This document shows positions 1,049-13,904 of a DNA stretch of 16,082 nt, in pieces. The notes under the pieces are model-generated. The model searched no databases, was not told where the DNA came from, and saw nothing but the letters and a program-made list of their open reading frames with translations. The stretch covers positions 1 to 16,082 of the forward strand of contig JAWOHE010000070.1 of assembly GCA_046485285.1 (NCBI GenBank), given 5' to 3'. The stretch comes from a bacterium. Lineage in GTDB: Bacteria; Hydrothermota; Tepidihabitantia; Tepidihabitantales; Tepidihabitantaceae. Each line of letters opens with the position of its first letter. Position 1 is the stretch's first letter. The translations under genes and the position numbers were made by a program.

Positions 1049-2866
1049 TCAGGTCTCGCGGTAGTGTGAGGCCTGGGCCAGGTACATCCGGGCGTAGAGC
1101 TCGCCGAGCTCGAGCAGTTCATGGTGCGTTCCCTGTTCCCGGATCCGCCCCTTGTCGAGCACGTAGATGTAGTCGGCGAGCTGGACCGTTGAGAACCGGT
1201 GGCTGACGAGGACCGCGCTCCGGCCGTCGAGAACCCCGCGGAACTGCTCGAATAGTTCGGCCTCGGCAAGCGGGTCGAGCGCGCTGGTCGGCTCGTCGAG
1301 CACGACGAGCTGGGAGCGGCGCATGAACGCCCGGGCCAGCGCGACCTTCTGCCACTCGCCGATGCTCAGCTCGAGGCCGGACTCGAACCAGCGGCCGAGC
1401 GGCGTGTCGTAACCCTGGGGCAGGCGGCTTATTGCCGCGTCGGCCCCGGCGCGCTTCGCGGCCGCGACGATCCTCGCCCGGTCCGGCTCGGCCGCCGCGT
1501 CGCCGAGCCAGATGTTCTCCCAGGCCGGGAGCTGGTACTGGACGAAGTCCTGAAGGATGACGCTGACCTCCCGGCGCCAGCGGGCCGGCTCGAGCCGGCG
1601 GATGTCGATGCCGTCGACGGTGATCTGGCCGGTGCCGGGGTCGTAGAGCCGGCAGAGGAGCTTGACGAGCGTCGTCTTGCCCGAGCCGTTCGCGCCGACC
1701 AGCGCAACGACCTGGCCCGGGGCAATCGCCAGGCTGACCGCGTCGAGCGCCGGCCGGGAACTGCCCGGGTAGGCGAAGCTGACGCCTTCGAACGCGATGC
1801 CCCGCGCGAACCGTGCCGGGACCGGGAGCGGCTTCGCCGGCGCGGTGACCCTCGGCTGGAGGTCGAGGAACTCGTAGAAGTTGGCGAGGAAGAGGTTGTC
1901 CTCGTAGAGCCCGGCGAGGCCGGCGAGGATGGCCGAGAGCGAGTTGGCCGCGAGCTGGAAGGCCGAGTAGTACATCACCAGGCTGCCGATGGTGATCGTC
2001 CCCCGCCAGGTCTGCCAGGCGATGTAGACGAGCGTGCCGAAGGTGGCGACCGTCACCGCGGCCTGGGCGAGCAGGCCGGCCGCGCTGCGGCGCCGGGCCA
2101 GTACCAGCCTCGCCCGGCGCAGTTGCCGGCGGAGTTCGCGGTAGCGCTGGCGGAAGAGCGCGCCGATGTCGAAGAGCCGGAGTTCCTTGGCCGGGAACGA
2201 GTTCGTCAGCAGCCAGTGGTAGTACCAGGCCCGGCGTTCCTTCTCGGTCTGCTCACGCTCGAAACGGTAGAGCCGGCGCGCGTGGACCATCCGGACGACC
2301 GCGCCGGGCAGGGCGACGACGACGAGCACGAGGGCGACCAGCGGGCTGAGCGCGAAGAGCAGGCCGGCGATGCCGGCCAGCGAGACCGCGCCCCGGCCGA
2401 CCTGGACCAGCCGGTTGACGATGTTGACCGGCCGGTGCATCGCGTCACCCTGGGCCCGGTGGAGGGTGTCGTGGTAGCGGGGGTCCTCGTAGTAGCCGAG
2501 GTCCATCGCGACCGACTGGCCGTGGACGATGTCGGTCACCTTGTCGGACAGCACGAGCGACTGGGCCTGGCCGACGAGCTCGGCCAGCGAGTGCGCGATG
2601 GCGGTGAGGAGCGCCGCGGCCGCGGCAACGCCGACCCAGACGAGCACGCGCTGGAAGCCGGCCGGTCCGCTGCCGGCCGCGATGCCGGCCTGCAGCAGGT
2701 CGACGACCTGCTTGATGGCGTAGAGCCCGGCCAGCGGCAGGAGCCCCTGGACCGCGACGAGGGCCGCGTTGGCGACCGCGAGCCCGGGCGCGCTGGCCCA
2801 GACGAGGCGGACCGCCCGGTCGAGGCGCAGGCCCTTCCGGACCGGGTCCTTCGGCCTCGCGCTCAC
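1049..2866 (-). CDS. ABC exporter, fused permease/ATP-binding protein (probable RiPP exporter, no C39 peptidase domain)
   Basis: 605 aa. N-terminal transmembrane domain, Walker A GANGSGKTT, signature variant LSIGEWQ, Walker B/D-loop VVLDEPTSALD and H-loop SHR. GTGA overlap with the upstream gene. Confidence 0.95.
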   Translation of the reverse strand: MSARPKDPVRKGLRLDRAVRLVWASAPGLAVANAALVAVQGLLPLAGLYAIKQVVDLLQAGIAAGSGPAGFQRVLVWVGVAAAAALLTAIAHSLAELVGQAQSLVLSDKVTDIVHGQSVAMDLGYYEDPRYHDTLHRAQGDAMHRPVNIVNRLVQVGRGAVSLAGIAGLLFALSPLVALVLVVVALPGAVVRMVHARRLYRFEREQTEKERRAWYYHWLLTNSFPAKELRLFDIGALFRQRYRELRRQLRRARLVLARRRSAAGLLAQAAVTVATFGTLVYIAWQTWRGTITIGSLVMYYSAFQLAANSLSAILAGLAGLYEDNLFLANFYEFLDLQPRVTAPAKPLPVPARFARGIAFEGVSFAYPGSSRPALDAVSLAIAPGQVVALVGANGSGKTTLVKLLCRLYDPGTGQITVDGIDIRRLEPARWRREVSVILQDFVQYQLPAWENIWLGDAAAEPDRARIVAAAKRAGADAAISRLPQGYDTPLGRWFESGLELSIGEWQKVALARAFMRRSQLVVLDEPTSALDPLAEAELFEQFRGVLDGRSAVLVSHRFSTVQLADYIYVLDKGRIREQGTHHELLELGELYARMYLAQASHYRET

Positions 2867-4077
2867 GGCCTGCCCGTCCTGAGCCAGCGGACCAGCAGGT
2901 CTTCCCGGCCGCGCCGGGGGTTGTCGACCATCAGCCGGGCCTGGAGCCGGGCGTGAAGCCAGCCTGCCCGGATGCCGTCGCGGAGCCGCAGGGCATAGAA
3001 GCGGTAGAGATGACGTGCGGTACGGGATGCCGGGTACTTCACGGCCATCGCGTCACGAGAGAGGAAGACATGCTTCCAGACCAGCCTTACCAGGCCGCCA
3101 AGCGACCCGGCGCCCCGGCGGCCGGCGAGCGACCCGGGCGGGCGGTAGTCGGACCGGGCGAGAACGGTCTCGCGCGCGACCTCCAGGACGCGGGGCTCGA
3201 TACCGCCCGGCACGAGCTGTTCGAAGACGTCGCCCGGGACTTCGGCCCCGAGCAGGTCGCGGGCAAGGCCGAGCACGAGGCCCGTGTATCGCGTCGCGCC
3301 CCACTCGCGGGCCCGGCGCGCGAACCGTGGCCAGTCCAACTCGCCGCGGAAGCGGTGAACGGTCTCGGCGACGTCGCAGAGGACGTACGGCACCGCGAGG
3401 CCGTGACGATGGCTGAGATGCAGGCACAGGTGCAGGAGCAAGTCCTCTGGCGAGAGCGCGAGCACCTCGACGCCAGCTATCGCGGCCGGACGGGCCCGGT
3501 CCCAGAGCCCGGCAGCGGCCACTCTGAATGGCCCGGTCGGGCGTTCGATGGCCCAGTGAAGGTCAACGGCGAGGTCGCGAATGAAGAGCGTCGGGAGGCT
3601 GGCGTTCCTGCGGCAGTGTCGCTTGATGTCGACCGGGCGCGCGGAGGCACCGCCAGCGGCGAGCAGGACCGCCCGGGCTCTCGGCAGGTCGGCCTTCCGG
3701 ACCATCAGGTCGGCATCGCTCATCGGCCGGAGTGCGGCGTCGCCGTAGACCGCCTCCGCGAGGAACGCTCCCTTGAGCACGATGACCGGAATGCCGGTAT
3801 CGCGCAGGCCGGCGAGCACCGGCCGAAGGCGACGGTAGAAGCGGGTGTTCCTGCCGGCGCTGTCAAGGTAGGCCAGTCGCAGGCGCTCCCAGGCACCGGC
3901 CGGGACCCGGTCCCGCGCCGAGCCCTGCTTCAGGCGCCTGAAGAGCAGGGGCGCGAGGCGGAGGTGGGCGGCCGCGGCGACGAGGCCGTTCCAGTCGGCG
4001 GCCGGCTCAGAGCCGTCGAACAGGTGACGGAGCAACAGGCTGACCGGCCGGGTGTCGACGGCCGAGCGAGCGTTCAA
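2863..4077 (-). CDS. Nucleotidyltransferase family protein (NTP_transf_5-like)
   Basis: Motifs IPVIVLKG, LRPMSDADL (DxD), VDLHW and LSPEDLLLHLCLH. Paralog of 13936..15195. The TTG start overlaps the upstream stop (TTGA). Confidence 0.88.
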   Translation of the reverse strand: MNARSAVDTRPVSLLLRHLFDGSEPAADWNGLVAAAAHLRLAPLLFRRLKQGSARDRVPAGAWERLRLAYLDSAGRNTRFYRRLRPVLAGLRDTGIPVIVLKGAFLAEAVYGDAALRPMSDADLMVRKADLPRARAVLLAAGGASARPVDIKRHCRRNASLPTLFIRDLAVDLHWAIERPTGPFRVAAAGLWDRARPAAIAGVEVLALSPEDLLLHLCLHLSHRHGLAVPYVLCDVAETVHRFRGELDWPRFARRAREWGATRYTGLVLGLARDLLGAEVPGDVFEQLVPGGIEPRVLEVARETVLARSDYRPPGSLAGRRGAGSLGGLVRLVWKHVFLSRDAMAVKYPASRTARHLYRFYALRLRDGIRAGWLHARLQARLMVDNPRRGREDLLVRWLRTGRP

Positions 4078-5648
4078 TCCCGCGCTTCGCTGCCGGAGGC
4101 GAGACTGATAACGGCCTGCCTGAGGGTCTGCTCAGCCACGAACAGGTGGAACGGCGGCCGAATGTACCACCGCCTGAGCCGAAAGTCGTAGTGCCCGACC
4201 ACCTGCCCGCCCATCAGCAGTTTGAGGAACGCCCGGTAGCGGTTGCCGAAGCGCACCGGCCTGGGCCGGAGCCGTCGCGGGAGAAGGCGGTCGAACGGGC
4301 CGAGACCGGCAACAGCGCGGTACAGCGTGTGAGGGAGACGGCCCGCGCTTCTCCGGATGCCCCGGCCCAGGCGCACGCAGCGAAGGACAAGGAGACCTCG
4401 CCACCCGCCGTGGACAACCCGGCGCTTGTCTCCGCGCTGGGCGGCGATCACGCGGCCGGTGATGCTGTCGGCCGGCAGGACCCAGGTGTCATCTTCCCGG
4501 TTGTTGTCGCCGCGGGTGCGCAGGCCGCCCTGCGCATGGCCGGGGACCGGGGACCGGCGACTGACCGAGACTAAGCGGTGCACGACCGTCTTGCCGGTCT
4601 CGGGCGACCTGAAGCAGACGACGTCGCCCGGGCGCACCCGGGCCGGACCGTACGGCCTGACTTCGAGAAGGTCGGGCTCGTCGAGGGTGGGAAGCATGCT
4701 GGTGCCCGTGCAGACCACGCGCAACGCGTCGTCAGCCGTAAGCGAGTCGACCGACACCGGGTCCGGCCGGGGGGCGTCCACACAGGGACCGGGCAAGTCG
4801 CCGACGGGCAGGACCCGCTCGATTTCCTCCCAGAACCTGCCCTCGAGGCTGAACTTCAGCGACCAGGCCGGGATGGCCGCGGCAAGCCCCCGGGCAGTCC
4901 TCAGCGCCTCGATGCAGAGCCGGTGGATGACGTCGACGTCGTTCAGGACGAACAGCACTTCCCGGGCGAGTTCCTCCGCGGACTCCATCGCCAGGGCGGT
5001 CACCCGCGTACCGTGGAGCGGCTCGAGTCGGTCAAACGGCGACTGGTCGAGGAAGAAGAGCGCCCGGAGCGGAACGGCGCGCTCTACGGCCCAAGAGCCG
5101 CCCGGGCCACCATAGAGGAAACGGCTCCAGGTCGGCCAGGGGTGAGCCCAGAAACGGCCCCTGCCGTCGGGCACGACCAGCGTCATGTCGTCGGACAGCG
5201 AGCGCCAGGGCGCGGGCAGGCGGCGGCTGGCAGTGCTCTTGCCGACCTCGGCCGGCCCGCCCATTATGAAACCGCTCCCCCGGTACTCGGCCAGCGCGCC
5301 GTGGAACAGCATCCCGCCCCGGGCCAGGGTCTCGCGGGCAATGAAGGATGCGATTCGCCGCAGTTGGGCAACCCGGGTCTCCTTGTCTGTCGGCGGGGCA
5401 ATCCGACACGCGGCTGCGCCGGGCGTCTCCGGTCCCGTTCGGTCGGACTCACCGGACACGGCGACACACAACTCGCGCCCGGCCTCGCCCGGCCTGCCCG
5501 ACCGGCAGACTGAGCCCAACTGCATTACTCTGCCCAGTTCGGCCACGATCTCCGTGGCCTGGTCATCGGCCGGCCGAATGAGCCACCGCTGGCCATCGGC
5601 CAAGGCAAGTCTCAGCCCAAACAGCAAATACGATGGAGGTGCTGGCAT
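4074..5648 (-). CDS. scmC: ScmC-like HPr-kinase-type P-loop domain fused to a C-terminal S24/S26 (signal peptidase I-like) peptidase
   Basis: N-terminal half has FHGALAE, GPAEVGKST, LSDD and HPWPTWS. C-terminal half has GTSMLP (Ser codon 4698-4700), GDVVCF, VVHRL (His codon 4578-4580) and TRGDNN. Confidence 0.82.
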   Translation of the reverse strand: MPAPPSYLLFGLRLALADGQRWLIRPADDQATEIVAELGRVMQLGSVCRSGRPGEAGRELCVAVSGESDRTGPETPGAAACRIAPPTDKETRVAQLRRIASFIARETLARGGMLFHGALAEYRGSGFIMGGPAEVGKSTASRRLPAPWRSLSDDMTLVVPDGRGRFWAHPWPTWSRFLYGGPGGSWAVERAVPLRALFFLDQSPFDRLEPLHGTRVTALAMESAEELAREVLFVLNDVDVIHRLCIEALRTARGLAAAIPAWSLKFSLEGRFWEEIERVLPVGDLPGPCVDAPRPDPVSVDSLTADDALRVVCTGTSMLPTLDEPDLLEVRPYGPARVRPGDVVCFRSPETGKTVVHRLVSVSRRSPVPGHAQGGLRTRGDNNREDDTWVLPADSITGRVIAAQRGDKRRVVHGGWRGLLVLRCVRLGRGIRRSAGRLPHTLYRAVAGLGPFDRLLPRRLRPRPVRFGNRYRAFLKLLMGGQVVGHYDFRLRRWYIRPPFHLFVAEQTLRQAVISLASGSEARD

Positions 5649-5753
5649 CTTGTCCGGCTAGGCGCTCGCGCTACACATCACGACAGCTTCTCCGCTACCG
5701 ACCGCAAGCCACCTGCTACGGAATCAGTTGTCTGCCGCTACCGACTCAACGGT

Positions 5754-5768
5754 GGGGCGGGCCGCCCC
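5754..5768 (-). terminator. Short GC hairpin downstream of precursor 1
   Basis: GGGGCG-ggc-CGCCCC, 12 nt beyond the stop codon. There is no U-tract, so it may stabilise the transcript rather than terminate it. Confidence 0.3.
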
Positions 5769-5780
5769 TCGCGCCGCTAC

Positions 5781-5960
5781 CTAGAAGTTCTGTACGTTAG
5801 AACCGGCCAGGCAGCGGTTCTGGCCCAGAACGCCGAATCCGCTGGCGCATACGTCCTCATTGCCCTCAGGCCCGTCGCCGCACGAAAACGTGCCGGTCGT
5901 GGCATCACTCAGGCGGACGGCGCACGGCGCCGTGTACTTCAGGTCGTCAGACTGGCTCAT
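5781..5960 (-). CDS. RiPP precursor peptide 1 (59 aa, ScmA-like, 3x CxxG); not in the ORF track
   Basis: Manual translation: MSQSDDLKYTAPCAVRLSDATTGTFSCGDGPEGNEDVCASGFGVLGQNRCLAGSNVQNF*. RBS GGAGGT (5966-5971) is 5 nt before the ATG. It has its own promoter and aligns without gaps to precursor 2. Confidence 0.9.
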   Translation of the reverse strand: MSQSDDLKYTAPCAVRLSDATTGTFSCGDGPEGNEDVCASGFGVLGQNRCLAGSNVQNF

Positions 5961-6001
5961 CAGATACCTCCGTGGCGTTGGTTTTGCATCTGCCTGAATT
6001 C

Positions 6002-6030
6002 ATTGTACCCCCCCCCGGCCCTGCTGTCAA
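6002..6030 (-). promoter_or_regulatory. Sigma70-type promoter of precursor 1: TTGACA-17-TACAAT with G9 in the spacer
   Basis: -35 at 6025-6030, -10 at 6002-6007, spacer 6008-6024. Near-consensus in high-GC DNA and conserved upstream of precursor 2. Confidence 0.8.
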
Positions 6031-6078
6031 GAAAAACGGTGGGCCTTCCCCGTCCTCGGATTCACTGCCCGCGACGCT

Positions 6079-6376
6079 TCAATTCCCGGTCCTGCGCTGC
6101 GCCCGGGCAGGGGGAAACAGCCCGCGGCGGACCGCCTCGGCGCACAGAGGGCGGGGCGCAACCAGTTGTCCGCTCTGGACATGGTTGTCGGCCACACAGC
6201 CGGTCCGGCAAACCCGGGCGAATATGCACCGCGCGCAGATGCCCGGGAAGCTGTCCGGGTCGGCCAGGGCCCGGCGTAGACGGAGAACCGTCGGGTTGTT
6301 CAGCCAGATGTCGCGCACGCTGTCTTTGCCCGGTTGCCCGCATGCCACCTCGGGGCAGGTGGAGCCGATGCCGCAC
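6079..6376 (-). pseudogene. Duplicated 3' fragment of the scmF-like gene (SPASM region)
   Basis: 6095-6376 matches 7045-7326 at offset 950 with 10 mismatches in 282 bp by manual count. It lacks the radical SAM core and any clear start. Confidence 0.9.
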
Positions 6377-6394
6377 CGCGTTCCGCGGCCAGGC

Positions 6395-6548
6395 GCCCGA
6401 CCGGCAGACGGGGTCCAACTGCAGGATTGCGCCCAGCTCGGCGGCAAGCGCCGCGGCCCTGTCGTCAGCCGGCCGCAACGAGCCGCCGCTGGCCATCGGC
6501 GAGGACGAGTCTCAGGCCGCGGGATGGATGAGAGGGGCGTGCTGACAT
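6395..6548 (-). pseudogene. Frameshifted 5' remnant of a scmC-like gene
   Basis: From ATG 6548 it reads MSARPSHPSRGLRLVLADGQRRLV, then after a 1-nt insertion RPADDRAAALAAELGAILQLDPVCRSG. This matches the N-terminus of 4074..5648 (GLRLALADGQRWLIRPADDQATEIVAELGRVMQLGSVCRSG), about 73% nt identity by manual count. Confidence 0.85.
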
Positions 6549-6650
6549 CGGAGTCGACGCTGCACCTGCGTCAAACGACAAACCGGCCAGTTCGCCACTG
6601 GCCGGATACCATTCGCTACCTAATCAGTTGTCTTCTTCTGCCGGTGCAAC

Positions 6651-6678
6651 CGCGACGCGGCCGGGCATTCGCGTCGCG
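6651..6678 (-). terminator. 9-bp GC stem-loop immediately after the precursor 2 stop codon
   Basis: CGCGACGCG (6651-6659) pairs with CGCGTCGCG (6670-6678) around a 10-nt loop. No clear U-tract. Confidence 0.5.
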
Positions 6679-6855
6679 CTAGTTCTGGACGGTGGAGCCG
6701 GTGTTGCAGATGTTGATCTGCTGGACCGCGAACCCGCTCTCGCACAGGTCGGCGTTGCCATTGCGGCCGTTCGTGCACGCGAACGTGCCGGTCTGGGCAT
6801 CGCTCAGACGCACGGCACACGGAGCCATATATGTCGAATTGTCGGACTTCACCAC
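6679..6855 (-). CDS. RiPP precursor peptide 2 (58 aa, ScmA-like, 3x CxxG)
   Basis: Likely start is GTG at 6855, 5 nt after GGAGGT (6861-6866), inside track ORF 6679..6981. Sequence: MVKSDNSTYMAPCAVRLSDAQTGTFACTNGRNGNADLCESGFAVQQINICNTGSTVQN*. It is 35/58 identical to precursor 1. Confidence 0.9.
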   Translation of the reverse strand: MVKSDNSTYMAPCAVRLSDAQTGTFACTNGRNGNADLCESGFAVQQINICNTGSTVQN

Positions 6856-6952
6856 TTCATACCTCCGATTCGCGGACTCCGCGAGAGCCCGCTCATTTTT
6901 GTCTAAAACGAACTGCTGCCAACTGGCGACCCTGTGCCAGTTGAACTGAGAC

Positions 6953-6981
6953 ATAATACCCCCCCCGGCGTCTGCTGTCAA
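6953..6981 (-). promoter_or_regulatory. Sigma70-type promoter of precursor 2: TTGACA-17-TATTAT with G8 in the spacer
   Basis: -35 at 6976-6981 (overlapping the scmF stop codon), -10 at 6953-6958. Confidence 0.78.
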
Positions 6982-8186
6982 GAGATACCTTCCTCGCCAC
7001 CGACCCGGGCTCCAGAGTCAACGCCGCCCGGGCTACCGGCCCGCCGCTGCGCCCGGGCAGGGGGAAAGAGCCCGCGGCGGACCGCCTCGGCGCACAGGGG
7101 ACGGGGCGCAACCAGTTGTCCGCTCTGGACATAGTTGTCGGCCACGCAGCCGGTCCGGCAAACCCGGGCGAATATGCACCGCGCGCAGATGCCCGGGAAG
7201 CTGTCCGGGTCGGCCAGGGCCCGGCGCAGACGGAGAACCGTCGGGTTGTTCAGCCAGATGTCGCGCACGCTGTCTTTGCCCAGTTGCCCGTATGTCAACT
7301 CGGGGCAGGTGGAGCCGATGCCGCACAGGGCGTACCGGTTCGTGCCGAGAATGCCCAGAATCCCGAGCACGCCGCAGTCACCGCAGGAACCGCCCGAGCG
7401 TCCCAGACGGCGGCGCGACGACAGGGCCGGGGGTATGTTGAGGATGACACCAACCGGCGCGCGCGGATGCAGATCCTCGTCAACGTAGCGCGCCAGCTCC
7501 ATCGTCTCGTCGAAGTCCAGGGCCTCGCCGCGCTCGTGCATCGTGATTCCGCGGCCGGTCCGGGTCACCGGGTTGAGCTTTACCGATGCCGCGCCGCGTT
7601 CCGCGGCCAGGAGCACGACCGGCTCGACCTGCGCGCGGTTCCCGCGGTGCACGCTCATGATGACCTGCGTGTTCTTGAACCCCGCATCCGCCAGGTGGGA
7701 AAGCCCTTTCAGGGCCGCGTCGAACGCGCCCTTGACGTTCCGAAAGGCGTCGTGGGTCCGGGCATCCGACCCGTCCAGGCTGACAGAAACAAAGGTGACC
7801 CGCGTCTTGTCCTTGAGGTGACGGGCGGTCTCGGCGGTCAGCAGGGTGCCGTTTGTCTCCATGAGGAGGCTCAGTCCCTCAGCGGTCAGCAGGTCGACGA
7901 CCTCCAGGAACCGGGGATGGAGCATCGGCTCGCCGCCGGTCAGCTTGGCCGAGCCCAGGCCTAGCGTCTTGCCTTCGCGCACCGCCTCGCGCAGGGAGTC
8001 CACGTCCACGCAGTCACCCGGGTCAGGCTTCCCGTCAATGAACCGGGGCACGATCCAGCAGTGACGGCAGCGCAGGTTGCAGCCGCTGGACAGGTAGATG
8101 TAGAACGAGCGCAGGGGGGGTACGCCCTCGGGCAGGTCAGGCGGCGGTGCCGGCGTCACGGGCGCGTCGGCCGGCTCACTCGGCAT
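6978..8186 (-). CDS. scmF: Radical SAM/SPASM peptide maturase, ScmF-like
   Basis: CNLRCRHCWI (CxxxCxxC), LTGGEP and ETNG. SPASM cysteines in CGVLGILGILG...ALCGIG...CARC...C...C...C. Position in the cassette fits. Confidence 0.85.
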   Translation of the reverse strand: MPSEPADAPVTPAPPPDLPEGVPPLRSFYIYLSSGCNLRCRHCWIVPRFIDGKPDPGDCVDVDSLREAVREGKTLGLGSAKLTGGEPMLHPRFLEVVDLLTAEGLSLLMETNGTLLTAETARHLKDKTRVTFVSVSLDGSDARTHDAFRNVKGAFDAALKGLSHLADAGFKNTQVIMSVHRGNRAQVEPVVLLAAERGAASVKLNPVTRTGRGITMHERGEALDFDETMELARYVDEDLHPRAPVGVILNIPPALSSRRRLGRSGGSCGDCGVLGILGILGTNRYALCGIGSTCPELTYGQLGKDSVRDIWLNNPTVLRLRRALADPDSFPGICARCIFARVCRTGCVADNYVQSGQLVAPRPLCAEAVRRGLFPPARAQRRAGSPGGVDSGARVGGEEGIS

Positions 8187-9321
8187 CTGGAGCCTCCTCG
8201 CCCTTGAAGATTCGATAGCAGACCAGCGGGTCGCGCGCGTTCAGCCTGCCGTACCGGGCCGCCACCGTCGCCGGGCAGCCGCCGGTGCAGAAGCCGGCAT
8301 AGCGGCAGTCCCGGCACTCGGGCAGGAACGAGAGCGGGATGTCGCGGCGGTAGCGCAAGGCGTTTATCGCCGGGCTCGAGCGCCAGGCCTCGGACAGGGA
8401 GTGCAGGCCGACGACGCCCATCACCAGCTTCGGCAGCAGGGAGCAGGGCACCATCGTGCCGTCGTGCAGTACCGCCATGTTCGAGAAGACGCAGCCACAG
8501 GCAGAGAGCGTGCCTCGTCCGGGCAGGCTGTCCCGGCCGTGCGCGAGCGAGTCCTCAATCACGGCGAAGCGCCGGGCCAGGTCCAGCGGGCCGGCCGAAG
8601 CGTTTATCCGGCCGTTGTACTTCTCGTTCAGCCTGGTCAGCGATGCCATCGCACGCCGGCGGTCGGCAGGGGTGAGGACAACGCTGCTGCCATCGCAGCG
8701 CGCCGAGCCCATTTGCGCGACCTCGTTGGTGCTGAAGCCCGCGAGCCCGACGTCCTCGAAGAGCAGGCGGGCGATGTTCTCGATGTCGTCGAGGTTGGCC
8801 CGGTTCACGGTGACGCGCACGGTCATCGGGAACCCGGCGCCCTTGAGCAGTCGCAGGCCGGCGAGCGCCCGGTCAAAGCTCTTCGGGGGACGGCTCCGGT
8901 CGTGGATTTCGGCCCGCGACCCGTCAATCGAGACCTGGATCGAATCCAGGCGCAGGCGGCGCTTGCCGACTGCGAAGGCCCGCAACGTGTCCTCGCTGAT
9001 GAGCGTGCCGTTGGTCAGTATCGAGTAGCGCATCCGATTGGCTATGATGCCGTCAATCAACTCGAAGAGGTCCTGCCGCATGAAGGTCTCGCCCCCAGAG
9101 AGTGACACGCGCTGGACCCCGAGCCGGCCCGCCTCCTCGAACAGGCCGTGCCAGCGCGCGGCCGGCATGTCGCTCAACGCCGCCATCTCGTCGGCGTAGA
9201 AGCAGTAGCGGCACTTGAGGTTACAGCGCCCGGTGATGGAGAGGTTCAACTGCCGCGGGGCGCGCGGCAGGCCGGGCGGCGGCACGGTCAGGTCAGGGAC
9301 CGGCGGGGCTTCAGTGCTCAT
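8176..9321 (-). CDS. scmE: Radical SAM/SPASM peptide maturase, ScmE-like
   Basis: ITGRCNLKCRYCF, LSGGE and LTNG. SPASM motifs CGC...DGTMVPC...CRDC...CTGGC...C. Confidence 0.85.
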   Translation of the reverse strand: MSTEAPPVPDLTVPPPGLPRAPRQLNLSITGRCNLKCRYCFYADEMAALSDMPAARWHGLFEEAGRLGVQRVSLSGGETFMRQDLFELIDGIIANRMRYSILTNGTLISEDTLRAFAVGKRRLRLDSIQVSIDGSRAEIHDRSRPPKSFDRALAGLRLLKGAGFPMTVRVTVNRANLDDIENIARLLFEDVGLAGFSTNEVAQMGSARCDGSSVVLTPADRRRAMASLTRLNEKYNGRINASAGPLDLARRFAVIEDSLAHGRDSLPGRGTLSACGCVFSNMAVLHDGTMVPCSLLPKLVMGVVGLHSLSEAWRSSPAINALRYRRDIPLSFLPECRDCRYAGFCTGGCPATVAARYGRLNARDPLVCYRIFKGEEAPDAE

Positions 9322-9595
9322 CAGGCGAGGCGATGATGAAGTCAGGAGTCAGCGACTGGATAAACTTCTCCGCGTCCTGCGCGGCCTGTTCCGGCGTCAC
9401 GTCCGGGTAGGTGGCCGCAACGTGGCCGGCAATCTCGGCAAGGGTCCGGGGCGCGGCGAGCAATGCCCAGATGGCACGGCCCGTGCGGTTGAGCAGGACG
9501 GTGTTGTCCTTGTCCGGGTTGTAGAGCATCGCCCCGTCCTCGCCCTCGTCGACGCAGGAGACAACGTCGCTCGCGCGGTAGGTTTTTTCGCTCAT
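9311..9595 (-). CDS. PqqD family RiPP recognition element (RRE)
   Basis: 94 aa. LYNPD...LLNRTGRAIWALL...TLAEI...Y...DAEKFIQSL is the PqqD-fold pattern. Confidence 0.88.
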   Translation of the reverse strand: MSEKTYRASDVVSCVDEGEDGAMLYNPDKDNTVLLNRTGRAIWALLAAPRTLAEIAGHVAATYPDVTPEQAAQDAEKFIQSLTPDFIIASPDEH

Positions 9596-9891
9596 CAGGC
9601 AGTATCCTCCAGCAGCACTTCTTGTCCGACAAAGCCCTCCTCGACCAGCTTCAACAGCAGGGCGCGGACGTCCTCGGCCACAGTGTCCGGCGCGTCCGGG
9701 AAGCGGCCGCGGATTTCGGCGACAATCTCCCCGGTCGTGCGCCAGCCGTCAACCAGGTTCCAGACCAGCGCCCCGGTGTGGTTCACGGCCATCGCGCCCG
9801 CGGTGTCCGGGTTCACCAGCAGGGTCCAGCCGTCAGCGCCTTCTTCCCGCACCACTGCCGGGTTGGCTATCGGCCGGTCCGGAACTGTCAT
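9595..9891 (-). CDS. scmD: PqqD family RRE, ScmD-like
   Basis: 98 aa. PIANPAVVREE...LVNPDT...VNHTGALVWNLVDG...DVRALLLKLVEEGFV. Confidence 0.85.
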   Translation of the reverse strand: MTVPDRPIANPAVVREEGADGWTLLVNPDTAGAMAVNHTGALVWNLVDGWRTTGEIVAEIRGRFPDAPDTVAEDVRALLLKLVEEGFVGQEVLLEDTA

Positions 9892-10084: not shown

Positions 10085-10162
10085 GTTGTCCGGCTATTTG
10101 GAGAATACCGTTATGTTCGATGACAGGCTTTTCGACCACGGAGCAGGCCCGGAGGAGGAGTG

Positions 10163-10342
10163 ATGGATGATCGAGACCGCAAGACCTGGCAGACGCCGAA
10201 GCTCAAGGTCCTCGCGAGGGTGAGGTCAGAGGAGAGAGTCTTGGAGGCCTGTAAGACCCCCATCAAGAACGGCCCGTCCGCAGCCGTGGCTTGCTACAAA
10301 GGCTCCTCGGGACAGGAGTGCGAAGTGATAGCCAATTCGTAG
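10163..10342 (+). CDS. RiPP precursor peptide 3 (59-60 aa; WxxPxL leader, 3 Cys, C-terminal Ser)
   Basis: MDDRDRKTWQTPKLKVLARVRSEERVLEACKTPIKNGPSAAVACYKGSSGQECEVIANS*. RBS GGAGGAGG at 10151-10158, alternative GTG start at 10160. First gene of the radical SAM operon. Confidence 0.85.
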   Translation: MDDRDRKTWQTPKLKVLARVRSEERVLEACKTPIKNGPSAAVACYKGSSGQECEVIANS

Positions 10343-10505: not shown

Positions 10506-11501
10506 ATGACGGATGACGCCCGGCTTGACCGCGTCCTTCCCGGCCCGCCGGCACCGGACCCGCGGAAGCCGGGGGCCCACCACCGCCTGTTCGGAATCGG
10601 TGGCATCACCATCCGGGTCGAGTCCGACCTGCCCTTCACCGACCGGACCTTCGACCCCAAGTTCCAGCAGTTCGAGCTCGACGGCCCGGGCCCTGACACG
10701 GTCACCATCCGCCACCACTTCGAACTGCCGGCAGTCGACCCCGACACCCTCGGCCGCGAGGTCTATCGCAAGCCGCCCTGGTCAATCTACCGCCGCGACA
10801 GTTGCTGGGTCTACCTCGGCGTCCTGCCCGAGGAGCTCGGCTCCGGCCTGTTCAAGGTCGCGGTCTTCAACGACGACCACTCGCTCGGCGACCTGTACCA
10901 CCCGGGCGACGGCGAGTTCCGCGAAGGCGGGCTCCACTCACTCACGATGTTCCCGACCGACCAGATTCTCCTCACGCCCCTGCTCGCCGACCGGCAGGCC
11001 TGCTTCCTCCACTCCGCCGGCGCAATCCTGAACCGCCAGGGCCTGCTCTTCGTCGGCCATTCCGAAGCCGGCAAGTCCACCACCCTGAAACTCATCAAGG
11101 ACCGGGCCGAAATCCTCTGCGACGACCGCAACATCGTCAGGCGAGAGACAGGCGAAGCCGGCAGTGCCGGGTGCGGGCACTCGCGTGGAACGCGAATCCG
11201 GGTCTACGGGACCTGGAGCCACGGCGAACTGCCTCAGGTCTCCCCGGCCTCGGCGCCGCTACGGGCAATCCTGTTCCTCGAGAAGTCCGGCGAGAACAGC
11301 CTGGCCCTGCTCGATGACCGCAGTGACATCCTCGGCCGCCTGCTCGGCTGTGTGATTCGGTCGCTGGAGACCCAGGGCTGGTGGCAGAAGACCCTCGGCG
11401 TGGTCGAGGCGCTCTGCCGCGAGGTCCCCTGCTACCTGATGCGGTTCGACAAGAGCGGACAAATCCTTGAACAGCTCGAGGCGCTGACGGAAGTCCGATG
11501 A
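10506..11501 (+). CDS. HPr-kinase-like P-loop protein (putative peptide kinase, ScmC/PadeK-related)
   Basis: FLHSAGA, Walker A GHSEAGKST, LCDD and YGTWSHG. Confidence 0.8.
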   Translation: MTDDARLDRVLPGPPAPDPRKPGAHHRLFGIGGITIRVESDLPFTDRTFDPKFQQFELDGPGPDTVTIRHHFELPAVDPDTLGREVYRKPPWSIYRRDSCWVYLGVLPEELGSGLFKVAVFNDDHSLGDLYHPGDGEFREGGLHSLTMFPTDQILLTPLLADRQACFLHSAGAILNRQGLLFVGHSEAGKSTTLKLIKDRAEILCDDRNIVRRETGEAGSAGCGHSRGTRIRVYGTWSHGELPQVSPASAPLRAILFLEKSGENSLALLDDRSDILGRLLGCVIRSLETQGWWQKTLGVVEALCREVPCYLMRFDKSGQILEQLEALTEVR

Positions 11502-12706
11502 CCGATGACCGACGACCGGTCTCCCCTGCCGCCTCTCGCTACGTCGAGCGGGTCCGGGACGACCAGCCCGAGCGCTGGCTGAAGCACCGGCCCCTGCTCG
11601 AGCGGTTCGACATCGAGCTGACCGAACGCTGCAACAACAACTGCATCCACTGCTACATCAACCTGCCGATGGCCAACCGCGCGGCCCGCGAGCGCGAGAT
11701 GCCTGCCGACAGGGTCAAGGCCATCCTGACCGAGGCCGCGGGCCTCGGCTGTGTGGCGGTGCGCTTCACCGGCGGCGAGCCGCTCCTGCGCGAGGACTTC
11801 GAAGACCTTTACCTCTTCGCCCGCCGGCTCGGGATGAAGGTGTCGCTCGCGACCAACGCCCGGCTCATCACGCCCGGTCTCGCCGACCTCTTCGCGCGGG
11901 TCCCTCCCCGGGAGCCGGTCGAGGTCACCGTCTACGGGATGAGGGCGGACTCCTGCGACGCCGTCACCCGCGTTCCGGGCTCGCACGCCGAGGCCCGGCG
12001 CGGCATTGAGCTGCTCACCGCCCGCGGGGTCCCGGTTGTCATCAAGGGCGCGGTCCTGCCACCGAACCTCGGTGAGTTGGACGAGATCGAGACCTGGACC
12101 GCCTCGCTTCCCGCGGTGGAACAGCCGCCGGCCTTCACGATGTTCTTTGACCTGCGCGGCCGTCGGGACTCGGACGCCCGGAACCGCCGGATTGCCGGAC
12201 TGCGCGTCTCGCCCGAGGCCGGCGTCGCCCTGCTGAACCGGCACCGCGAGCGCTACCTCGGCGATATGCGCCAGTTCTGCGCGAAGTTCATCGGCCCGCC
12301 CGGCGACCGACTGTTCACCTGCGGCGCCGGTCACGGGACCTGTGTCGACGCGTACGGCAGGGCGCAGGCCTGCCTCCTGCTCCGCCACCCGGCGACGGTC
12401 TACGACCTCGCGAACGGCACGCTCAGGGAGGCTCTCACCGTCTTCTTCCCGCGCTTGCGGGAGATGAAGGCCGCGAACCCGGACTACCTCGCCCGCTGTG
12501 CCCGCTGTTTTCTCAGGGGCCTGTGCGAGCAGTGCCCGGCCAAGTCTTGGGGCGAGCACGGCACCCTCGACACGCCGGTCGAGTACCTCTGCGAGGTCGC
12601 CCACGCCCAGGCGCGCGACCTCGGCCTGCTCGCGGAAGGCGAACAGGCCTGGGAAGTGACCGACTGGCGCGGCCGGGTCGAGAGGCTGAAGACCGATGAG
12701 GATTGA
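11498..12706 (+). CDS. Radical SAM/SPASM peptide maturase
   Basis: ELTERCNNNCIHC, FTGGEP and ATNA. SPASM motifs CGAG...AC...CARC...CEQCPA...YLC. Confidence 0.92.
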   Translation: MTDDRRPVSPAASRYVERVRDDQPERWLKHRPLLERFDIELTERCNNNCIHCYINLPMANRAAREREMPADRVKAILTEAAGLGCVAVRFTGGEPLLREDFEDLYLFARRLGMKVSLATNARLITPGLADLFARVPPREPVEVTVYGMRADSCDAVTRVPGSHAEARRGIELLTARGVPVVIKGAVLPPNLGELDEIETWTASLPAVEQPPAFTMFFDLRGRRDSDARNRRIAGLRVSPEAGVALLNRHRERYLGDMRQFCAKFIGPPGDRLFTCGAGHGTCVDAYGRAQACLLLRHPATVYDLANGTLREALTVFFPRLREMKAANPDYLARCARCFLRGLCEQCPAKSWGEHGTLDTPVEYLCEVAHAQARDLGLLAEGEQAWEVTDWRGRVERLKTDED

Positions 12707-13904
12707 CGGAGGACCGAAGACCGAAGACGGGCAGCCGGTCCCCGATCCCCGGTCGCCGGTCCCCGGTCATCCTTCTTCCGCCTACTCCTCATTGGTCCCT
12801 CTCCCCGGCTTCGAACTCTGGGACCGGATGAAGCAAAGGCACGCGCCGCTGGCCTTCGACATCGAGGTCACCGCCCGATGCAACAACGACTGCCGCCACT
12901 GCTACATCAACCTGCCGGCCGGCGACCCGGCCGCCCGGGCCGCCGAGCTCACGCCGGCCGAAATCGAGCGCATCGCCCGCGAGGCGGCGGGGATGGGCGC
13001 GCTGTGGTGCCTGCTGACCGGCGGCGAGCCGCTCCTGCGCGACGACTTCCCCGAGGTCTACCTCGGGCTGAAACGACTCGGGCTCCTCGTTTCGGTCTTC
13101 ACCAATGCCTGCCTGGTCAGACCCGAACACGTCGAGCTGTTCCGGAAGTACCCGCCGCGCGAACTCGAAGTCTCGGTCTACGGCGCAACCGAGGCGACCT
13201 ACGAACGGGTGACGCGCCGGCCCGGGTCGTTCCGCGCCTTCCGCCGCGGCCTCGACCTGCTGCTCGCCGGCGGCGTCAAGGTCCAGCTCAAGGCGATGGC
13301 CCTGCGCTCGAACGTCCACGAGTTCGCGGAGATCGGCCGCTTTTGCCGGGCGCGGACCGCGGACGACTACCGCTTCGACCCGCTCCTGCACCTGCGCTTT
13401 GACCGCGACGAGGCGCGCAACGCGGAAATCCGCGCCGAGCGGCTCTCGCCGGCCGAGGTCGCGGCGGTCGAGCGCGCGGACGCGGAACGGTTCGGGACGC
13501 TCAAAGAACACTGCAGCCAGCTCATCCTGCGCGAAGCCGCACGCGCGACCGGCAATCACCTGTTCCAGTGCGGCACGGGCCGGGACAGCTTCAGCGTCAG
13601 CTTCGACGGTCGGCTCCGGCTCTGCTCGTCGCTCTGGCACCCGGACACGGTCTATGACCTGCGCCGCGGTACGCTCGCCGACGCCTGGCACAACCACGTC
13701 CCCCGGGTGCGGGACCTGCGCTCGGACCGGCCGGACTTCCTCGCGCGCTGTCACGCCTGCCCGATTGCCAACCTCTGCCTCTGGTGCCCGGCCCACGCCT
13801 TCCTCGAAACCGGCGAGCTCGACGCCCCGGTCGACTACTTCTGCGAGGTCGCCCGCGCGCGGGTCGCCGGGCTAGGAGTAGTGGAACCGCCGGGCCAGGG
13901 CTGA
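12696..13904 (+). CDS. Radical SAM/SPASM peptide maturase (paralog of the preceding gene; start uncertain)
   Basis: EVTARCNNDCRHC, LTGGEP and FTNA. SPASM motifs CGTG...LC...CHAC...CLWCPA...YFC. The first ~25 aa derive from heptamer repeats; alternative ATG at 12828. Confidence 0.9.
   Translation: MRIDGGPKTEDGQPVPDPRSPVPGHPSSAYSSLVPLPGFELWDRMKQRHAPLAFDIEVTARCNNDCRHCYINLPAGDPAARAAELTPAEIERIAREAAGMGALWCLLTGGEPLLRDDFPEVYLGLKRLGLLVSVFTNACLVRPEHVELFRKYPPRELEVSVYGATEATYERVTRRPGSFRAFRRGLDLLLAGGVKVQLKAMALRSNVHEFAEIGRFCRARTADDYRFDPLLHLRFDRDEARNAEIRAERLSPAEVAAVERADAERFGTLKEHCSQLILREAARATGNHLFQCGTGRDSFSVSFDGRLRLCSSLWHPDTVYDLRRGTLADAWHNHVPRVRDLRSDRPDFLARCHACPIANLCLWCPAHAFLETGELDAPVDYFCEVARARVAGLGVVEPPGQG

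Follow-up and report, generated by a model that had tools for sequence, protein, structure and literature searches.

The window, that is, the whole 16,082-nucleotide stretch of DNA that was analysed, carries a gene cluster on its minus strand. Read along that strand, the order is two PqqD-like genes, an ScmE-like gene, an ScmF-like gene, a short peptide gene (preB), a remnant region of about 500 bp, a second short peptide gene (preA), an ScmC-like/S26 peptidase gene, an NTP_transf_5 gene and an ABC exporter gene. The features are as follows:

9595-9891 and 9311-9595, minus strand: two PqqD-like genes (PF05402; TIGR04248 at 62.3 and 32.2 bits, cut-off 100)
8176-9321, minus strand: ScmE-like radical SAM/SPASM gene, 381 aa (TIGR04250 at 370.3 bits, cut-off 400; PF04055, PF13186)
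6978-8186, minus strand: ScmF-like radical SAM/SPASM gene, 402 aa (TIGR04251 at 351.4 bits, cut-off 400; PF04055)
6953-6981, minus strand: promoter B, TTGACA-17-TATTAT, sharing bases with the stop codon of ScmF
6679-6855, minus strand: preB ("precursor 2"), 58 aa, GTG start, with the same GGAGGT at the same spacing as in preA
6583-6605, minus strand: terminator-like hairpin with a T-run, 3' of preB (z = -2.69)
6395-6547, minus strand: ScmC' remnant, duplicated from the 5' end of ScmC (identity to 5496-5615, 78.5%)
6079-6405, minus strand: ScmF' remnant, duplicated from the 3' part of ScmF (self-comparison)
6002-6030, minus strand: promoter A, TTGACA-17-TACAAT (promoter scan, 11/12 positions)
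5966-5971, minus strand: Shine-Dalgarno-like GGAGGT, 5 nt before the preA ATG
5781-5960, minus strand: preA, 59-aa precursor-peptide gene, stop included (ORF, homology, family profile)
4074-5648, minus strand: ScmC-like gene with an S26/SEC11-type signal-peptidase domain (TIGR04249 at 160.6 bits, cut-off 125)
2863-4077, minus strand: NTP_transf_5 gene, downstream in the same direction (profile match)
1049-2866, minus strand: ABC exporter gene, downstream in the same direction (profile match)

The product of preA is MSQSDDLKYTAPCAVRLSDATTGTFSCGDGPEGNEDVCASGFGVLGQNRCLAGSNVQNF, read from an ATG start through 59 intact codons to a stop. The initial annotation had described a 59-aa ORF at this place together with a GGAGGT ribosome-binding site and a consensus promoter, and all three were borne out. 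The 17-nt spacer of promoter A terminates in a run of nine G residues ahead of TACAAT. Three promoter-like sites were found in the region 5400-7200, compared to 0.1 ± 0.3 in 50 shuffles. As the window is 69% GC and contains 129 ORFs of at least 40 aa, the length of the preA ORF is not significant by itself, and the weight of the case is carried by homology rather than by ORF length. Three overlapping frames (5777-5908, minus strand; 5860-5997 and 5633-5800, plus strand) were considered and rejected, as both homology and the codon-position pattern favour the preA frame; differences between preA and preB number 16, 16 and 28 at codon positions 1, 2 and 3. Rfam and tRNA scans of the window returned no matches.

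The gene had also been called hidden. This was correct with respect to the 60-aa cutoff of the ORF track, but public protein data include the exact 59-aa product, an NCBI-sourced gene call without a name, and the gene itself was already predicted publicly. The lesson for annotation is that precursors are missed by 60-aa ORF cutoffs. A search of the ESM Atlas yielded unnamed clusters only, at 0.89-0.90, and no structure. The public gene call for preB is a 49-aa protein read from an internal ATG (P0005). A 58-aa preB read from the GTG at 6855 is favoured by the spacing of the ribosome-binding site and by the ortholog in the related genome G041, where the aligned codon is an ATG.

Two strong hairpins follow preB, the second being the terminator-like one. 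The stretch 3' of preA was no more structured than shuffled sequence (z = +0.46) and has no terminator-like equivalent. Because there is no terminator behind preA, transcription that starts at promoter A probably continues through the ScmC-like gene and the genes further downstream, so that this promoter would also drive the ScmC-NTP_transf_5-ABC genes.

When scored against the SynChlorMet cassette models, the ScmC-like protein exceeded its cut-off; ScmD, ScmE and ScmF were the best-scoring families for their genes, yet each fell below the curated cut-off. The cluster is thus SCM-like and not a curated equivalog, since by cut-offs only ScmC qualifies. The ScmE-like and ScmF-like proteins matched the StsB, AlbA and PapB maturase models with E-values of 1e-19 to 1e-30, far below the cut-offs, and WgkB and PqqE-type models scored similarly. 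The S26 domain, of the SEC11/archaeal type, occupies residues ~305-400 in the C-terminal part of the ScmC-like protein (TIGR02228 at 47.3 bits, cut-off 51.85; PDB SEC11, E = 0.0066). The ScmC-like part itself is faintly similar to HPr kinase (PDB 1ko7, E = 0.92), and a plus-strand paralog matches HprK_rel_B (E = 1.2e-4). This fusion of an ScmC-like part to an S26 domain is followed by the PF14907 nucleotidyltransferase, and further tailoring of the peptide, such as phosphorylation or nucleotidylation, is possible.

A second, divergently oriented RiPP-like cluster is present in the window on the plus strand (10160-10342 and 10506-13904). It encodes a 60-aa peptide with a W-Q-T-P-K-L leader and a weak ScmA match (17.3 bits, cut-off 35), together with a relative of ScmC/HprK and a further pair of radical SAM/SPASM proteins. 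The W-Q-T-P-K-L peptide has a paralog on another contig of the same genome (C72), behind a G-tract promoter.

A rare peptide family beside ScmF-like and ScmC-like genes

The peptides encoded by preA and preB are closely related. BLASTP aligned them without gaps over 34/56 identities (E = 5e-23), and a codon count that reads the GTG start as M reproduced the ungapped 35/58 match to precursor 2 given by the initial annotation. The 15 synonymous codon differences reported among identical residues were likewise recovered, or 16 differing codons when the ATG/GTG start pair is included. No model in Pfam or NCBIfam matches preA or preB.

Both belong to a rare, uncurated peptide family with a Y-x-A-P-x-A-V-R-L-x-D-A leader and a core bearing three spaced Cys-x-x-Gly units, 11-12 residues apart. 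In preA the proposed leader covers approximately residues 1-23, and the core cysteines are Cys27, Cys38 and Cys50, each within a C-x-x-G unit. An alignment of 22 sequences showed Y9, P12, L17, C27, C38, C50 and G53 to be invariant and V15, R16, D19 and G30 nearly so. Apart from the three cysteines, G30 and G53, all of these positions lie within residues 9-19. preA has 7/7 of the invariant and 4/4 of the near-invariant residues. The family profile matched preA at E = 4.6e-27 over profile positions 1-58 of 59 in a search of its own genome, and a 6-sequence profile did so at E = 1.2e-31, values that are inflated because preA is itself a row in both alignments. Independent support for membership comes from the BLASTP match to preB and from a single-sequence match to a peptide in genome G021 (E = 6.8e-9).

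We searched for the family in other genomes, designating the genome that carries the window G000 and the compared genomes G001 onward. Single-sequence searches of relatives identified homologs in genus g10; most single-sequence matches with E > 0.01, such as G013:C6 and G021:C294, lacked the leader motif and were rejected as spurious. When the 6-sequence profile was run against 1.84 billion representative proteins, 63 matched at E ≤ 1e-3, of which 10 reached E ≤ 1e-10, most of the 63 being peptides of 49-97 aa alongside a few long proteins (for example P0007, 1141 aa). All 30 sequences inspected had a K-Y-E-A-P-R-A-V-R-L-x-D-A-x-T-G-like leader and a Gly/Ser/Asn-rich core with regularly spaced cysteines. 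Of 272 genomes surveyed across the phylum, 13 (G000 included) carry the peptide family, all of them within one taxonomic family, f1 (12/43 without G000); none of the 228 genomes from other families of the phylum contained it.

In nine loci from nine other genomes (G003, G013, G021, G041, G050, G051, G052, G053 and G055) the peptide gene lies between an ScmF-like and an ScmC-like gene. The position of preA fits this pattern: it lies directly 5' of the intact ScmC-like gene and 3' of the ScmF' remnant and ScmF, on the same strand. G041 carries the entire cluster in the same order with 78-94% protein identity, but has one precursor only and no room for a second. Its single precursor is 78% identical to preB and 59% identical to preA. 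A conserved ORF at this position in related clusters was one of the points by which the initial annotation could be tested, and this was found in part: family and position recur in the nine loci, but a second copy is absent from this nearest syntenic cluster. Multiple precursors do occur elsewhere, with two in tandem before the ScmC-like gene in G008 and a second one after ScmC in G013 and G051.

The cluster is patchily distributed. No family peptide was found in three of the four other genomes of the same genus (G001-G004, 83-96% complete); G003 has a more distant version of the cluster (ScmF 71%), and the closest copy is in a different genus (G041, genus g9). This pattern fits either loss and gain or transfer.

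A single preA-type homolog, P0004, was found on contigs of at most 1340 bases in an ENA assembly. It is 59 aa long and 80% identical to preA, and all 12 differences fall outside the conserved positions. In a peptide tree preA and P0004 cluster together with 97/100 support; elsewhere 8 of 12 inner branches had support below 80. A profile scan of metagenome contigs for DNA encoding P0004 matched 89 stretches, none of which was confirmed. A protein search started from preB brought up nothing beyond P0005, its public gene call of 49 aa, and the protein of G041; a preB-type counterpart to P0004 was not among the matches.

The promoter elements ahead of the family gene, both hexamers (-35 and -10) and a spacer rich in G, were kept in 5/5 aligned loci, and a pattern search identified them in 11 distinct loci. 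The promoters of preA, preB and loci L003, L011, L015, L019, L023, L028, L033, L035 and L037 carry a G-tract (G5-G9) directly ahead of the -10 hexamer, within a spacer whose length ranges from 16 to 18 nt across loci. A spacer run of G6 or longer is seen in only 6 of the 138 TTGACA-N16-18-TAnnAT sites of G000; two are those of preA and preB, and one, on C72, precedes the paralogous RiPP-like peptide mentioned above. Variation in G-tract length would allow phase variation, and the G-tract promoter may set precursor expression or vary it by slippage.

Duplication, constraint and origin of preA

Self-comparison revealed a tandem repeat of about 1.2 kb whose unit spans from inside ScmF to inside ScmC. 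One copy (6395-7623, ~1229 bp) contains the ScmC' 5' fragment, the preB terminator, preB, promoter B and the 3' part of the true ScmF. The other (5496-6405, ~910 bp) contains the 5' end of the true ScmC, preA, promoter A and the ScmF' 3' fragment. ScmC' has kept its ATG, yet it carries a frameshift and is open for 27 codons before a stop. ScmF', without the radical SAM N-terminal domain, matches ScmF at 95.5% (6086-6376 against 7036-7326) and 92.7% (6365-6405 against 7583-7623), with an internal deletion of ~257 bp at a shared GCGGCATCGG microhomology. The joint between ScmC' and ScmF' is a shared GCCGGTCG(G/T)GC microhomology, so that both joints fall at microhomologies of 10-11 nt. The chimeric stretch between the peptide genes (6040-6547) therefore consists of a frameshifted ScmC 5' copy and an internally deleted ScmF 3' copy. 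The listed ORFs at 6062-6496 (144 aa) and 6079-6447 (122 aa) are products of these remnants, the latter reading the SPASM end of ScmF at 90% identity.

The duplicated pieces of the enzyme genes have decayed, whereas the peptide ORF, promoter hexamers and ribosome-binding site are intact. preA is very probably a second precursor copy that arose by local tandem duplication. Identity along the repeat unit is uneven, at 95.5% for ScmF', ~78% for the promoter region, 65.5% (114/174) for the peptide gene and 78.5% for ScmC', a pattern suggestive of either gene conversion in one flank or mosaic ancestry.

The initial annotation had read the synonymous differences as purifying selection on the peptide and had proposed dN/dS between homologs as a check. 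By NG86, omega was 0.29 for preA and preB (dN 0.334, dS 1.152), 0.35 for preA and the G041 ortholog (dN 0.379, dS 1.079) and 0.29 for preB and the G041 ortholog (dN 0.119, dS 0.413), all below 1, the dS estimates being noisy at 57 codons. When changes were polarised with the G041 ortholog, 44 were unique to preA (17 synonymous, 27 non-synonymous), 9 to preB and 12 to G041, and the difference between preA and preB was significant in Tajima's relative-rate test (p = 1.5e-6). On the preA branch pN/pS was 0.47 (39.3 synonymous and 131.7 non-synonymous sites), with an excess of synonymous changes (one-sided binomial p = 0.0145). Neutral evolution was simulated 20,000 times by scattering the same number of nucleotide differences (59) randomly over preB; no run reached 34 identical residues (mean 21.5, maximum 31), and only 39.5% of runs remained stop-free. 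The comparison of preA with preB also showed the leader to be more conserved than the core (dN 0.22 for residues 2-24, 0.42 for residues 25-58), as in the two-part conservation of RiPP precursors. Purifying selection on the peptide is thus supported. The constraint on preA is real, though looser than that on preB, and given the long branch and a pN/pS of 0.47 compared to 0.29 for preB and G041, it may be relaxed.

Taken together, these data argue that preA is very probably a real, full-length paralog of preB from a family tied to ScmF/ScmC-type genes, in agreement with its original description as a precursor gene. We consider it likely that preA is a functional second precursor gene, produced by tandem duplication, of a SynChlorMet-like radical SAM/SPASM RiPP cluster. 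Three alternatives were weighed against this reading.

The strongest, to which we assign not quite an even chance, keeps preA functional but makes it an older or foreign cassette rather than a simple in-place duplicate of preB, with flanks later homogenised by gene conversion. Such a cassette could stem from a duplication before the split of G000 and G041, with subsequent loss in G041, or from recombination with a preA-type relative. dS amounts to 1.15 for preA and preB, almost three times the 0.41 of preB and G041, although these values are noisy with 57 codons, and preB and G041 have in common a 56-nt segment of the 5'-UTR that is missing from preA, G021 and G050; by these two measures the preA unit seems to predate the separation of G000 from G041, or to be foreign. 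The very uneven identity along the repeat and the separate clade of preA and P0004 point the same way. However, both junctions are plain microhomology joins whose ScmC-like and ScmF-like sequence is resident at the locus, just what a local duplication should leave, and the tree does not fix where the preA clade attaches. Alternatively, the duplication may be recent and the peptide segment replaced by recombination.

The second alternative holds that preA is an open but unused by-product of duplication, an extra copy that is either recent or in slow decay and that lacks expression or is not taken as a substrate by the enzymes. The single precursor of the closest cluster, the long branch and higher pN/pS of preA, and the pseudogenised remainder of the duplicated unit are compatible with this, and an open frame alone is a weak argument given the proportion of neutral simulations without a stop. 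We nevertheless judge it unlikely, as the preA branch has an excess of synonymous changes, 11/11 conserved family positions are kept, and the promoter hexamers and ribosome-binding site have survived ~22% divergence in the surrounding non-coding DNA. Moreover, P0004 is an independent preA-type sequence of the same length with the same conserved residues. As the G041 cluster works with one precursor of the preB type, preA would be dispensable to the pathway.

A chance open frame in GC-rich DNA or a two-strain assembly artefact is highly improbable. Open frames abound in this window and the genome is a 102-contig draft (88% complete), but the homology E-values (5e-23 and 4.6e-27) speak against chance. 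The junctions share only ~10-11 nt and link an ScmC' with a frameshift to an ScmF' with an internal deletion, an arrangement that no functional strain would carry and that an assembler relying on long identical words would not create.

Known systems and a proposed pathway

Among the closest described systems is ScmA (TIGR04252, the SynChlorMet precursor), which is likewise a short Cys-containing peptide beside ScmC/ScmD/ScmE/ScmF-type genes. Sub-threshold ScmA matches occurred in 3 of 27 family members (P0011, E = 4.7e-4, 20.3 bits; P0015, E = 0.028; P0032, E = 0.053), each starting exactly at the Y-x-x-P leader motif. However, no family member reaches the 35-bit cut-off, and preA does not qualify for membership; preA and preB had no match to the ScmA model at E ≤ 10, P0004 and the G041 ortholog had none even at E ≤ 1 to 10, and a genome-wide ScmA search of G000 did not find preA or preB. 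The names ScmA to ScmF imply a gene order, whereas here the peptide gene sits between ScmF and ScmC. From the position of the weak matches and the gene context, the family is probably a remote relative of ScmA.

Sactipeptide and ranthipeptide precursors of the SCIFF, freyrasin and subtilosin type share with preA a leader, a Cys-bearing core and SPASM-domain radical SAM neighbours. None of the models for such precursors matches preA, and the present locus differs in having two radical SAM enzymes and two stand-alone PqqD-like proteins. The YxxPxL motif of lasso-peptide leaders is bound by PqqD-type recognition elements, and the Y-x-x-P-x-x-x-x-L motif and stand-alone PqqD-like proteins found here resemble that arrangement. 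Both PqqD-like proteins also match lasso PqqD models (E = 4.9e-8 and 9.7e-7), and the adjoining NTP_transf_5 gene and ABC exporter gene are a further likeness to lasso loci. Profile scans of the window detected neither a lasso cyclase nor a B-type protease, and the lasso leader model gave a single weak match in the family (P0014, E = 0.14).

Thuricin CD is reportedly a two-peptide sactibiotic made with two radical SAM enzymes. Two diverged tandem precursor genes beside two radical SAM enzymes resemble loci of that kind, but relatives of the present cluster with one precursor also have both radical SAM genes and both PqqD-like genes, so the enzyme pair does not correspond one-to-one with the peptide pair. 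In a search of the main texts of papers we found no characterised SynChlorMet-type product, no paper on this type of cluster and nothing linking PF14907 with RiPPs.

Under our preferred reading of preA as a functional second precursor, the leader would be bound by one or both PqqD-like proteins. A complex prediction for both proteins with preA, run without controls, scored 0.02 against a mark of 0.32. The core cysteines would then be cross-linked by ScmE and ScmF; given the three cysteines and the weak matches of these enzymes to sactipeptide/ranthipeptide maturase models, the leading guess is a thioether, with one cross-link per C-x-x-G unit. The S26-type domain fused to ScmC would cut off the leader, perhaps after the conserved S-D-A, and the ABC transporter would export the product. 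As the cores of preA and preB differ at 17 of 34 aligned positions, one enzyme set would yield two different products. A more comprehensive reading can be offered only tentatively and is, on balance, doubtful: two long-diverged cores for two products, a ScmF' flank kept alike by gene conversion, a ScmA-related, uncurated class of precursors serving SynChlorMet-type radical SAM pairs, and a conserved G-tract promoter that may set expression.

Paralogous precursors are common in RiPP loci, and preA is a sound but fairly ordinary find that holds little surprise for the specialist. Its interest lies in what the locus offers. Knowledge of the substrate is the first step toward SynChlorMet-type chemistry, and the more comprehensive reading, if true, would give a SynChlorMet-type cassette a clearly identified substrate. 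The locus holds two natural substrate variants with the same leader and cores that are half different, a ready-made test of enzyme specificity. It also illustrates a route by which a cluster may reach product diversity, namely microhomology-mediated tandem duplication with the peptide gene as sole survivor.
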